Positions 9,564 to 61,662 of a DNA stretch of 64,000 nt are shown here, in pieces (position 1 is the first letter of the stretch; each line of letters starts with the position of its first letter). A program made the position numbers and the translations under genes. The notes under the pieces were generated by a model that worked only from the letters and a program-made list of their open reading frames with translations, was not told where the DNA came from and did no database searches. Source of the DNA: Octopus sinensis. Lineage: Eukaryota. The stretch spans positions 16,430,001-16,494,000 of the forward strand of contig NC_043004.1 in assembly GCF_006345805.1 (NCBI RefSeq), given 5' to 3'.

Positions 9564-9766
9564 TATATGAAGTAAAAAAGGAAGCAAAATTCCGTTTGCT
9601 CTCATGTGACATACATACACATACACGCACGCACACTCACACACATACGCACACGCACACACACACACGCATACACAGATACACACACATACACATACAC
9701 AGATATATATATATATATATATATATATATATATATATATATATATATATATAATATATATATATG

Positions 9767-9963
9767 TAGGTCCCGGGTTGAGTCGGGGTTAACCACAGTA
9801 AATAAGGTACTCAATACATAGCAGAGTAAATTAACTTATTTTATAGAAGGAGCTTCTACAGGACTAGAACTGTTTCATTCAAATGAAATCATCAGAAGCT
9901 TCCTGATGATTTCATTTGAATGAAACAGTTCTAGTCCTGTAGAAGCTCCTTCTATAAAATAAA
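9767..9963. mobile_element. Small (TA)n-embedded fold-back element (probable PLE pseudo-LTR remnant) with HHR-like core
   Basis: Perfect 60 bp arms 9836-9895 / 9903-9962. Each arm carries CTGATGA-TTTCATTTGAAT-GAAAC-AGTTCTA-GTC. Flanked by (TA)n on both sides. Confidence 0.7.
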
Positions 9964-10041
9964 TATATATATATATATATATATATATATATATATATAT
10001 ATATATATATATATATATATATATATATATATATATATATA

Positions 10042-10924
10042 CGAGGGGTTACCCAAAAGAAACTGAAAAGTTCTCTGTGGGACAAGCCCGTTGTAGTTCA
10101 GGCTTCAGCCGCTCGAAACAATTTGATGCGACACATAGGCGTCATTCTGCTGACAGTCATTGCCCAATGGGGTCATACTGCCACGTGATGCCTCTGTGCT
10201 TTGTGCCCTTGTTCGTCGATTCAGCAATGGCTGAAATGTAGGAACAACGTGTTTCCGTGAAATTCAGTTTTCTGCTTGGGTGAACGCGCGTTGAAACAGT
10301 GGTCAGGCTCCAAACAGCTTACAAGGACGCTACTATGAGCAAAACATTACGATTGTTTTTTTGGTTTTTTTCACGCTTTAGAAACGGTCACTTGACCACT
10401 TGAGGATCAACGCTCCTTGAAGGCGACCGTTGATCCCCTGAACGAATGAAAACATCATGAAAATTCCTAAACTGATCTTGGAGGACCGTCACCGAACAAA
10501 TGACGAAATTGTTGGTATGACTGACGAATTTTGAGCGAGGAATTGCGAATGAAAAAAGTTGCAACAAAATTTATACCTCTTTTGCTCACGGAAAATCAAA
10601 AGCAGTCATGATTGAATGCATATCGTGAACTGAAAGAACTGTTGGAAGTCGATACGGACCTTTTTTCGAATGTCATCATTGGTGACGAAAGATGGTGCTA
10701 CGGAATTTGTAGATGTGGAAGAGATTAGTAAAAAAAAAACGACGGACGCGTTAAAAGGCATCACTTAGCAAGAGTTCCATCACTGCTTCCAAAATTTGAA
10801 AGCTCGTCTGGACCGATGCATTGTTTAAATGGCGAATAATTTAAAGTCAATAAAAGAGGAAACACGTAAAGCTAAGTGAATAAAATAATATTTTTAAATT
10901 TCGGTTTCTTTTGGGTACCCCTCG
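10042..10924 (+). mobile_element. Internally deleted mariner transposon
   Basis: TIRs CGAGGGGTTACCCAAAAGAAACTGAAA / TTTCGGTTTCTTTTGGGTACCCCTCG with TA on both sides. Decayed transposase EQRVSVKF, MKKVATKFIPLLLT, VIIGDERWCYG, CFQNLKARLDRCI; middle of the catalytic domain is missing. Confidence 0.92.
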
Positions 10925-11108
10925 TATATATATATATATATATATATATATATATATATATATATATATATATATATATATATATATATATATATATATA
11001 TATGTTATATTTCGGAATGGTTTAGCCAATAAAAACACACGCACTATATATTTGGTGTTATTTTGCTTCAGTGTTATTTATTTTTTACATTAATCTTAAT
11101 CTTATTTC

Positions 11109-11153
11109 GGCCAGAGTTCTTTCGTCACACTCCTGTGACCGCATCAGTGGTCC
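11109..11153 (-). ncRNA. Minimal hammerhead-ribozyme-like motif in the 3' pseudo-LTR
   Basis: GGACCA-CTGATGC-G-GTCACA(GGAG)TGTGAC-GAAA-G-AA-C-TC-TGGCC: 6 bp stem II, short stem I, A9 replaced by C. Same sense as the ORF. Confidence 0.55.
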
Positions 11154-11552
11154 TTTGTTTTCTGCTTTCTTATTTGTGTCTCTCCTTACGAACCGTCAGC
11201 CATTTTGTATTTCTATTGTATGTCTTCATTTACGCATGCGTATATCTCTATGTGCGTCTATGTTTATTTAGTGTGTGTATGTGGGGGGATGCCTGTAATA
11301 TTTGTATCTTCTGTTTATATACGTTCATGTAATTTGTATTTTGTTTTTGTTGTTTTTGTTTATTCTTATTTTGTTCATGTGTTTACATCCACTTATTATT
11401 ATCATTACATATGCTTGTATGTATGTATATATAACAACAATACTAGTAATAACAACAATAAATCGAATCGAAAAAAAATATATATATATAGTTATTTATT
11501 TTTATTTGTTTATTTATCTGTGTATTTATTATGTTTTCGGGATCCTCTATCG

Positions 11553-59239: not shown

Positions 59240-59445
59240 GTTTTCCCCTTCCACCTTTTAGCAACTGTTGTTGACTTATCTACATCCCTGTAACATACAG
59301 GTAGCGGTTCGGTAAATGTGATCGATAGAAGAGGCCAGGATTACAAAAGATAACTATTGGGATCGATTTCTCTATCAAAACCCCTCCAAGGCTGTACCCC
59401 ATCATGGCCGTTTTCTAATGACTGAAACATGTAAAAGTTGAAAGA
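59240..59445 (+). mobile_element. SINE family A, 3' half, diverged
   Basis: TACATCCCTGTAAC..AGCGGTTCGG..GGATCGATTT..CATGGCCG..AATGACTGAAACATGTAAAAG. Confidence 0.65.
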
Positions 59446-60499
59446 AGATTAAACCGTGATGTGACTTGTATCTTCAAAGTAACCAAATAACGTATATATT
59501 AGTTCATTGTACAGTCTCGCTGTAAGTGAATTAAAATACCGACAGGAAATAAATTAAATTCACACATATAGAATGAGGCAAAGACAATTAGTTTTGTTTT
59601 GTTCAGTACCGTAATAGCGATTGGAAAATATTTTTGTACATCACTGTAACTGTAAAACAAACAACTCTATTTAGAAGAATTTATCAAAATACAATTTTGA
59701 AGAAAACATTCAGAACTTCAGAAATAGTGAAACATTTTATGTTTTGTTATTTTGTGGGCAAATAAAAGTGATGTTTTTACATCGGAACAAAAGAACGTCT
59801 GTCCTCCATGATACTGAAATATAAAGTAGGAATAAATGTGTATTTGTTTATATATGCGTGTATGTGTCAGTGTGTGTGTGAGAGAGGGAGAGAGTGTGTG
59901 TGTCTATGTGTGTGTGTAATAGCGTGTAGTATGTTTTGCTTAAAACACAGACTAATCACGTCTGCGCTATTTGTGTTAAAATATTTTCGTTATTAGTCTT
60001 CCCATTATTGTTATTTATTTATTATTGCTTTTATTTTTGTATACGACACTGTAGATCGATAAAGTAATTAACACAAACATATCTCTAATAATTATATTGA
60101 AATAACCACAATCCGGTAAAAAAATATTGTTGTATTTACATAAAAAATTATTTTATTACTAAATATAAAATATCACACTTAAAAGATATTTGCTTCGTTC
60201 TCATCTTCCATGTCGGTCTCTAACATTTGAAGTTTTATGTATGAATGTGTGTTCGTGTGAATGTGTATTTGTGTGCGCGTCATTGAGTGTGTGTGTTTGT
60301 GTGTGCTACTGGTGTGTGCCTATATGCTTGGATATTCCTAAAATTAAATCAGCAATCACAATCACAAACATATATTGTTCGTCCTCAAGTATTTCTCCTG
60401 TTGTGTTTACTGTTACAGTTATGCTCTATGTGATATAGAAGACCTCTCTATTTAGAACTGCTTGGCATATCACGAAGCTATGTTCAATGCCGCTTCCGA

Positions 60500-61170
60500 A
60501 CATAGGTAGCTTTGAAGATGTTCGCTCTGATGCAAAAATCCGAAATAATTATCCTCAGAATGTTAACCTGTCCTCAAGGCGCATTGATTCTCGTTTCATT
60601 TCGGTAGAGATCACAGCAGGTAAATGCTGCTGAATAATATATTCTTGCATTTAGATATATATTTGACTCCACACATAACATATGTGGCTAGTACATTAGA
60701 CACATATGCTATCGCTATCTCTGACACAAAAGCGCCACCCATTTCTACACGGTTCATTTCTGTCAAACAGCTTACATTTTATACTGATGACCTATTCAAA
60801 AATGTGACACCCGTACGTTTCAACCGCCTATTTTGTCATTTTTTAAACATATCTGGACTTAAATGGGAAAGACTTCGAAATAATCTGGCCTAAATTTTTC
60901 CACGCACTGACAACTAACTGCATCGTCTTCTCCTACGGTTCTTAGAGCTGCAACCATATACAAATCTTCTATTTGCAACATTTACAGATGCAGTGCGCTT
61001 TCATTTATATCTACATGCATTCTTCACAGAAAAAAATACTCGAAAGAGACCTGGCATCTTTTTCAGACATCCAGAAGCACCGTCCACCAAAGAAACCGAG
61101 CATATCGAGTGGTCCGACCAATGTGTTTATGAAGTAACCTTCCTTATATATCTTTATGTGCAATCCCCTG
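60500..61170 (+). mobile_element. Very decayed RTE-like LINE fragment
   Basis: Scattered motifs YVAS (YLGS), ERLR..W, FSYGS*S (LLYGSES), RFHL, IEWSD (LRWSG) appear in the expected order; weak. Confidence 0.3.
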
Positions 61171-61180
61171 CTTCTAAGTA

Positions 61181-61360
61181 TCTGCAACCTGTTTCGAAAG
61201 CTGTTTGTCAAAAACAGGTTTTGTGATACACACACTATACCGCTAAGCATATTTACGGACTTAGTTCATTATTGCTCAAGGGTAGTAAATATGCTTAGCG
61301 GTATAGTGTTTGTATCACAAAACCTGTTTTTGACAAACAGCTCTCGAAACAGGTTGCAGA
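61181..61360. repeat. Near-perfect palindrome: 76 bp arms, 28 bp spacer
   Basis: 61181-61256 vs 61285-61360, two mismatches by eye. Confidence 0.9.
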
Positions 61361-61401
61361 AAATAAGACAGGTAGTCTAAAAGTATAAAAGACAGGTTGT
61401 A

Positions 61402-61662
61402 CGGAAAATAAGACAAGGTAGTATAAAATGCTAAAATGTTATCAAGGTGTACATTTCGTAACGGTTTATACCGGTTTATGCCTTTTTTTACTTTTTCAAC
61501 TAAGTGTAGCCGTAATAGCGGCTGTCCGTGAAATCTACTTTAATACCCACATTTTTTTAACCTTAGTTGCAAAAGTCAAAAAGACTGAAGCCAGTAATAA
61601 ACGTTTCAAAATGTATTTCATGATAAAATTGTTTTAGCATTTTTTACCTTGTCTTATTTTCC
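61402..61662. mobile_element. Older fold-back dimer of the repeat family seen at 54700-54795
   Basis: GGAAAATAAGACAAGGTA..AAAATGCTAAAA / TTTTAGCATTTT..TACCTTGTCTTATTTTCC. The inner arms carry TTAGTTGMAAAAGT..-type HHR-like motifs. Confidence 0.65.

Follow-up and report, generated by a model that had tools for sequence, protein, structure and literature searches.

A candidate non-circularly permuted hammerhead ribozyme in a Penelope-like element-associated repeat family of the Octopus sinensis genome

Introduction

Minimal hammerhead ribozymes (HHRs) are carried in the pseudo-long terminal repeats (pLTRs) of Penelope-like elements (PLEs), where they occur mostly solo, sometimes as opposite-strand pairs, and include a U3-A8 variant (PMC4209133). 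Inverted truncated copies, tails and (TA)n targeting have been described for Hydra and Naiad PLEs and a microsatellite bias for Neptune PLEs (PMC8557442), and the tail has been explained by internal initiation of reverse transcription (PMC11167929). Minimal HHRs, inverted pLTRs, tails and TA targeting are thus already published. Here we analyse a 64,000-nucleotide stretch of the Octopus sinensis genome (NC_043004.1, positions 16,430,001 to 16,494,000; called the window throughout), which samples about ten PLE families whose HHR-bearing ends adjoin (TA)n. Our main subject is the non-coding family D, whose hammerhead motif shows a permuted order of its conserved blocks.

The block order of family D is that of type SGC, a non-circular permutation of the HHR described by Eckert et al. 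2023 (PMC10085705). That study was the first to demonstrate such a permutation in a natural RNA; the contigs were metatranscriptomic, their hosts were unknown, and how the permutation had arisen was not settled. The data on rearranged hammerheads come from assembled metatranscriptomes of soil, spruce and sludge (Supplementary Note 1 and Table S2 of PMC10085705). Because the search also covered RefSeq 85 (PMC10085705), family D was missed, filtered out or absent there; the words 'octopus' and 'metazoa' do not occur in its supplement, and the NW_ accessions examined there, 24 of 26, belong to twister-type alignments. In papers on retrozymes the HHR is given as type I (PMC7229834; Li et al. 2026, 10.64898/2026.07.22.740005), and since the HHR surveys of animal genomes consulted here use type I descriptors, an SGC class would escape them. 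PMC13725137, so far as consulted, does no more than cite Eckert et al. 2023. A literature search on SGC or non-circular permutation and on mollusc or cephalopod HHRs, with most subscription journals and the repeat databases outside its range, returned no report of a genomic animal SGC ribozyme.

Results

Block order of the family D hammerhead

The family D element of the window and the parts of its hammerhead are as follows.

23822..24836, minus strand: family D element, non-coding, a partial tandem of a unit of about 770 nt, with (TA)n on both sides
24103..24192, minus strand: type-SGC permuted hammerhead
24171-24160, minus strand: block S, with the predicted cut between 24166 and 24165
3 nt, minus strand: linker from S to G, then block G at 24156-24144
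24128-24111, minus strand: block C, with core CUGACGA at 24122-24116
24185-24176 with 24138-24129, minus strand: extra helix IIIb
24192-24186 with 24109-24103, minus strand: possible closing helix

The first-pass annotation had listed a hammerhead at 24129. A hammerhead core is indeed present there, but it is not of type I, and the non-circular permutation had gone unnoticed. Read on the minus strand from 24192 to 24103, the blocks follow one another as cleavage site (S), GAAA (G) and CUGANGA (C). In full, a stem III strand, UH, a stem I strand and the 3-nt linker are followed by a stem II strand, GAAA and the stem III partner and, after about 15 nt, by the stem I partner, CUGACGA, an inserted A and the stem II partner. 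A type I, II or III hammerhead within one unit was rejected at this site, where no GAAA follows stem II.

Blocks S and G lie 18-19 nt apart and form a local hairpin that is extended by IIIb. Of the subfamilies, D2 and D3 have a palindromic stem III and D1 does not. In D2 and D3 the internal loop places GAA opposite AGUA, which we take to resemble a loop-E motif, and the bases preceding block S resemble a second GAA-CG-UH half-ribozyme.

Conservation of the permuted structure

A pattern spanning blocks G to C, which does not demand block S, gave 4,527 exact matches in the genome (2,248 + 2,279) and none in the reversed control. Among the first 30 genome matches, taken unselected, an S block lay upstream and both stem I and stem III reached 4 bp or more in 19, the rest being 5'-truncated or mutated, compared with 0 of 113 metagenome matches; in this metagenome scan, which served as a control, no SGC relative was found among the 113 matches to the pattern. 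Alignment A1 was built from 22 of these 30 genome matches and the window copy; of the eight left out, one was a duplicate and seven were cut short within or close to the motif. Paired cells amounted to 89.3%, compared with 82.1 ± 0.7% in shuffles (0 of 500 as high) and 36-55% in slid controls. Changes on both sides of a pair numbered 57 against 21.5 ± 4.5 in shuffles, with covariation at 10 of 20 pairs, and such changes affected 5 of 6 pairs in stem I and 3 of 5 in stem III. The aligned copies show that the predicted stems I, III and IIIb covary. Several subfamilies, which are 68-78% alike over the motif region, are told apart by these covarying changes.

Of 82 family D copies gathered by homology, 80 keep CUGANGA and 72 keep the GAAA block. 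Among the 68 of 84 rows retained after filtering for pairing, C, U or A but never G occupies position 17, and the spacing of a 6-nt strand plus 3-nt linker is found in 62 of 68. The pairing tally from these filtered rows was not used as a test, which is carried by A1 and the unselected matches. From these data we are highly confident that family D contains a conserved structure of SGC order.

Several observations weigh against a self-cleaving, PLE-mobilised element of this kind. Stem II shows covariation at none of its four pairs, two of them G-U, and its 94.5% pairing is partly fixed by the search pattern. The covariation counts are inflated by relatedness and do not separate cis from trans pairing. 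Pseudoknot-free folds vary among representatives, with the stem III hairpin appearing in 4 of 7. SGC ribozymes were found to depend on a helix between the distal parts of stems I and II (PMC10085705); it is absent in that form from family D, which has in its place IIIb and the possible enclosing helix. IIIb adjoins stem I with 0-3 nt between them, so the cis fold would be strained unless the internal loop bends sharply; a few published SGC RNAs pose a similar geometric puzzle (PMC10085705). Finally, no autonomous partner of family D was identified with queries drawn only from the window's own PLE proteins.

This awkward cis geometry would be avoided if the motif were a conventional HHR of type II/III connectivity formed across two tandem units, the S-G-C order of the single unit being incidental. 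Metazoan PLE HHRs act as dimers, stem III is palindromic in D2 and D3, and tandem copies with two motifs are present. The local hairpin of S and G, extended by IIIb, should nevertheless out-compete pairing over about 800 nt, stem III of D1 is not palindromic, and the fixed 3-nt linker is the same as in cis SGC ribozymes. We therefore regard a two-unit hammerhead as quite unlikely.

Another possibility is that the motif no longer cleaves and, though derived from a hammerhead, is conserved as a structural or protein-binding signal. Sister families of the window have spread despite changes at normally invariant core positions (A6U, A9C, U4C), so catalysis may be dispensable, and PLEs without HHRs also proliferate. 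Family D, in contrast, has kept its core positions and a base other than G at position 17 in its different subfamilies, although N7 and the stems have changed. A conserved core with varying N7 and stems is, at the level of sequence comparison, the signature of catalytic constraint, and we judge the loss of cleavage to be very unlikely. Family D probably functions as a self-cleaving ribozyme of a PLE-mobilised element.

The carrier element and its proposed mobilization

The carrier unit of family D is 755-880 nt long, arranged in partial tandem and bounded by PLE-type ends. A self-repeat with a period of 755-873 nt was seen in 15 of 99 loci, the long copies repeating their own 3' part, and two tandem ribozymes occur at periods of 780 nt (L327) and 879 nt (L326). 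Copies are variably 5'-truncated. No open reading frame (ORF) was found in the unit; a PLE-protein match was present in 4 of 112 loci and in none of them was continuous with the unit. At one locus (L246) a D fragment follows a PLE, beyond that PLE's own HHR and TA run. Contigs from five organisms cover the motif region.

In the mechanism that we propose, a tandem copy would be transcribed and blocks S and G would fold first into a long hairpin, on whose loop block C would dock, either in cis or from a second copy or molecule. Cleavage, predicted after GUU, GUC or GUA, would release a unit-length RNA that might circularise. A PLE protein with reverse transcriptase (RT) and GIY-YIG domains would then act in trans and reverse-transcribe the RNA at a nicked (TA)n target, which could give rise to the truncated, inverted and more-than-unit insertions.

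The half-ribozyme-like bases before block S in D2 and D3, together with the palindromic stem III of these subfamilies, suggest a duplication of the minimal PLE half-ribozyme, although an origin of the SGC order by this route is speculative. On balance we lean towards the fuller reading that family D may be the first animal chromosomal self-cleaving HHR with a non-circularly permuted double-pseudoknot topology and a new SGC class of PLE-mobilised retrozyme, present in thousands of copies, which may preserve the origin of such permutations through a duplicated palindromic half, from GAAA to the cleavage site, of the minimal PLE ribozyme.

Other hammerhead families of the window

The remaining HHR-bearing features are listed below.

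9766..9962, plus strand: family B fold-back of a long-tail arm and a short-end arm; HHR 9897-9947, core CUGAUGA
11004..15069, minus strand: family C PLE with a broken RT and GIY-YIG ORF and inverted pLTRs
11004-11322 and 14681-15069: short-end and long-end pLTRs of family C
near 11145 (minus strand) and 14855 (plus strand): family C HHR, core CUGAUGC (A9C)
24878..25467, minus strand: family E fold-back; HHR 25000-25044
25632..25900, minus strand: family F 3' fragment, 5' boundary approximate; minimal HHR near 25690-25725
33728..33854, plus strand: small fold-back with a decayed HHR, without (TA)n flanks
34810..35022, plus strand: family F2 fragment, 5' boundary approximate; HHR 34887-34921
44433..45343, minus strand: family A PLE of Hydra type, truncated at its 5' end and flanked on either side by (TA)n
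45700..47573, plus strand: family G decayed PLE, 5' boundary approximate; HHR 47523-47554
54473..54850, plus strand: family H fragment, boundaries approximate; HHR 54703-54737
54850..55031, minus strand: F-superfamily fragment, boundary approximate; HHR 54929-54964
57697..58016, plus strand: family J, in which the HHR at 57716-57830 has a long helix II
58183..58878: family A fold-back; HHRs 58213-58275 (minus strand) and 58309-58371 (plus strand)
61400..61665, plus strand: decayed fold-back of an H-like family, without (TA)n flanks; HHR 61563-61600

More than ten HHR or HHR-like motifs had been claimed for the window, and direct reading found an HHR or decayed HHR at 15 of 15 coordinates. A strict type I descriptor gave four matches in the window and none in each of six shuffles, whereas an earlier version had given two, both spurious. 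Among the 146 matches of an Rfam scan of the window at E ≤ 5, no hammerhead was present. Since the window copies are mutated, family copies were needed for detection. That the motifs belong to several families was borne out by genome copies for 9903, 11109/14849, 24129, 25000, 25700, 44460/58309 and 47527; copies of 34890, 54702, 54940 and 57717 turned up incidentally, and for the decayed motifs at 33748 and 61560 no second copy was found among the loci collected. These two also lack (TA)n flanks.

Genome searches returned 969 candidates for family A, 584 for B, 125 for C, 1360 for E, 3785 for F and 382 for G, and 1995, 2892 and 2235 for D1, D2 and D3; these numbers are a first look and not copy numbers, with 40 candidates scored and 20-30 loci fetched per search. 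With unparsed copies counted in the denominators, the fetched copies carried the cores CCGAAGA (A, 24/28), CUGAUGA (B, 23/30), CUGAUGC (C, 21/28), CUGAAGA (E, 21/24), CUGUCGA (F, 13/29, most others keeping U6) and AUGAUUA (G, 9/19), and UUGAAAA was found in 4 of 5 incidental copies of H. Odd cores thus recur across copies and are therefore family traits rather than decay.

Family B has a stem III of 4 bp that is near-palindromic, and a Hydra-type ORF is present in one of its loci (L321). At least 43 genome places match 64 nt of it at 100% identity (loci L091-L120). Very young and with a canonical core, family B is the leading candidate for a type I ribozyme that is active. The core of family A, CCGAAGA in the HHR at 44464-44526, carries U4C. 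In family G the core AUGAUUA replaces the C3-G8 pair by A3-U8 throughout the family (L330-L348), and the UUGAAAA core of family H has U3-A8 in place of C3-G8. The window copy of family E lacks one A of the family core CUGAAGA. Repeated CCAAT-like boxes lie at 25195-25225, inside its pLTR, and are a possible promoter. The core of F2 reads CCGACGA or CUGACGA. Family F has the core CUGUCGA (A6U); the F superfamily (25632-25900, 54850-55031; L032-L060) is very abundant and has an A6U core. A single locus suggests a unit of about 1.1 kb for family F, which is possibly a second non-autonomous class.

RT and/or GIY-YIG ORFs lie sense-upstream of the HHR-bearing pLTR in families A, B, C, E, G and H. 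In the window itself this is seen for A, C and G, in agreement with the first-pass annotation, which had placed three motifs at the 3' end of PLE ORFs. The motif at 11109 is downstream, in sense, of ORF 11553-12749 (minus strand). The motif at 44460 likewise follows a GIY-YIG ORF with a CxCX5C linker (44711-45340, minus strand; Pfam PF01541, E 6e-4, below the curated cut-off) and that at 47527 a broken RT/endonuclease region at about 45700-47300 (plus strand). Elsewhere in the genome, PLE ORFs were found upstream at L325 for family E and at L292 and L197 for family H. No PLE ORF or autonomous partner was found for families D, F and J with the window PLE proteins as the only queries, and among the window families only D and F look non-coding.

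An inverted partner within 600 bp was present in 12 of 28 copies of family A and 16 of 28 of family B. Families A, B, C, D and E have two classes of 3' end about 30-75 nt apart, and fold-backs join one long to one short end. This combination of ends and pairing is the signature of a PLE tail. The small elements had been interpreted as ribozyme-bearing derivatives spawned by PLEs; the fold-backs of A, B, E and H do link to PLE ORFs elsewhere, but the short fold-backs are better explained as insertions of autonomous PLEs that were 5'-truncated or inverted than as separately spawned mini-elements. The families other than D are ordinary PLE pLTR ribozymes, which we infer to work as dimers.

In the family A fold-back the right arm is split at about 58408-58795 by a tRNA-like short interspersed element (SINE) with a short direct repeat at its ends. 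A further fold-back at 61173-61368, of which no other copy was seen among the loci collected, has arms ending in a GAAA-palindrome half-ribozyme.

Association with (TA)n

The idea that several HHR-bearing PLE lineages insert at (TA)n was supported. With queries that contained no TA, and counting an end as associated when it adjoined an alternating run of at least 8 nt, 3' ends lay at TA in 152 of 221 copies, which as the best-scoring copies are young, compared with 3.1% of random positions. By family, the counts were 25/28 (A), 29/30 (B), 21/28 (C), 16/24 (E), 12/29 (F) and 49/82 (D; 17/24 for D1, 11/29 for D2 and 21/29 for D3), and the ends of a SINE-like control, the repeat inserted in the family A fold-back, lay at TA in 2 of 12 and 2 of 14 cases. 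Unmasked alignments ran through TA; 5' junctions were therefore counted with TA tracts masked, and 31 of 77 (D), 7 of 21 (F) and 4 of 22 (C) were at TA, against the same 3.1% background.

The genome is a 2.72 Gb, AT-rich animal genome. Clusters of (TA)n that are 12 nt or longer number 42 in the window, compared with 33.5 per 64 kb in a sample of 60 evenly spaced 10-kb stretches (600 kb); the TA density of the window is near the genome mean, and the window is not unusually TA-rich. By inspection, about 15 of the 42 clusters touch a PLE end. DNA transposons also collect in TA tracts, as is seen from one element of the window.

10042-10924: element bounded by terminal inverted repeats and flanked by TA, lying within the TA tract that separates families B and C; we take it to be mariner-like

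It had further been suggested that PLE insertion seeds or lengthens TA tracts beyond merely targeting them. The contact of some 15 of 42 clusters with PLE ends would fit such an effect, as would the position of short ends where the element itself continues as AT-rich alternating bases. However, the majority of clusters have no recognised PLE end and the density of the window is near the genome mean. TA is also found at the variable 5' junctions, which favours insertion into existing tracts, and the literature regards (TA)n as a target (PMC8557442). The seeding or expansion of TA by PLEs was thus not borne out, and we consider it unlikely. Taken together, the earlier interpretation of PLEs, HHRs and (TA)n is partly supported and is largely published biology.

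Repeated AT-rich segments adjoin TA tracts at 48753-48936, 54216-54297, 54340-54452 and 63641-63737; no HHR was seen in them, and they may be tails of additional PLE families. A common SINE-like repeat is folded back around an AT-rich core at 30092-30427. An ORF fragment at 7313-7774 (minus strand) has no Pfam match; we presume a likeness to Tc1-type transposases.

Comparison with known systems

The HHRs of families A-C and E-J resemble published PLE HHRs in their short palindromic stem III, the extra base after A9, their occurrence as solo motifs or opposite-strand pairs, and the U3-A8 variant. The published accounts of PLE hammerheads, so far as these were covered, gave no family-wide A3-U8, A6U or A9C cores. 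U3-A8, A6C and U4C are among the known HHR variants, U4C from viroids (PMC3088659), and a literature search for a natural A3-U8 hammerhead gave no example. Families with A3-U8, A6U, A9C and U4C cores make the need for cleavage by PLE hammerheads directly testable.

By linker motif only and without a tree, families A and B agree with the Hydra clade (CxCX5C, with (TA)n insertion), and family C and the G-type copy at L246 with PLE clades of Craig et al. 2021 (Hydra, Neptune, Nematis) in their CX4CxxC linker (PMC8557442). Like Hydra, Neptune and Nematis PLEs, the elements here insert at (TA)n, include inverted truncated copies and have a tail at one end, the tails being about 33-75 nt here compared with the 30-40 bp described (PMC8557442).

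Family D shares with non-LTR retrozymes non-coding tandem HHR units in an animal genome and an inferred derivation from PLEs (PMC7229834; 10.64898/2026.07.22.740005). Those retrozymes have type I HHRs in units of about 300 nt, whereas the HHR of family D is of the SGC type and its unit is 755-880 nt long, and its copies are mostly truncated or of one to two units, with PLE-type tails and TA targeting.

With the SGC ribozymes family D has in common the S-G-C order, the core, the 3-nt linker between stems I and II, the base after A9 and two pseudoknots; cleavage-validated members share this linker and inserted base (PMC10085705). It differs in having, where the published ribozymes have a helix through which stems I and II interact, an extended stem III and possibly an enclosing helix. 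The published SGC ribozymes come from metatranscriptome contigs (PMC10085705), whereas family D is chromosomal in an animal and present in thousands of copies. As a genomic family with many subfamilies, it places the ribozyme in a host and a biological setting and offers natural covariation as well as constructs ready for testing.

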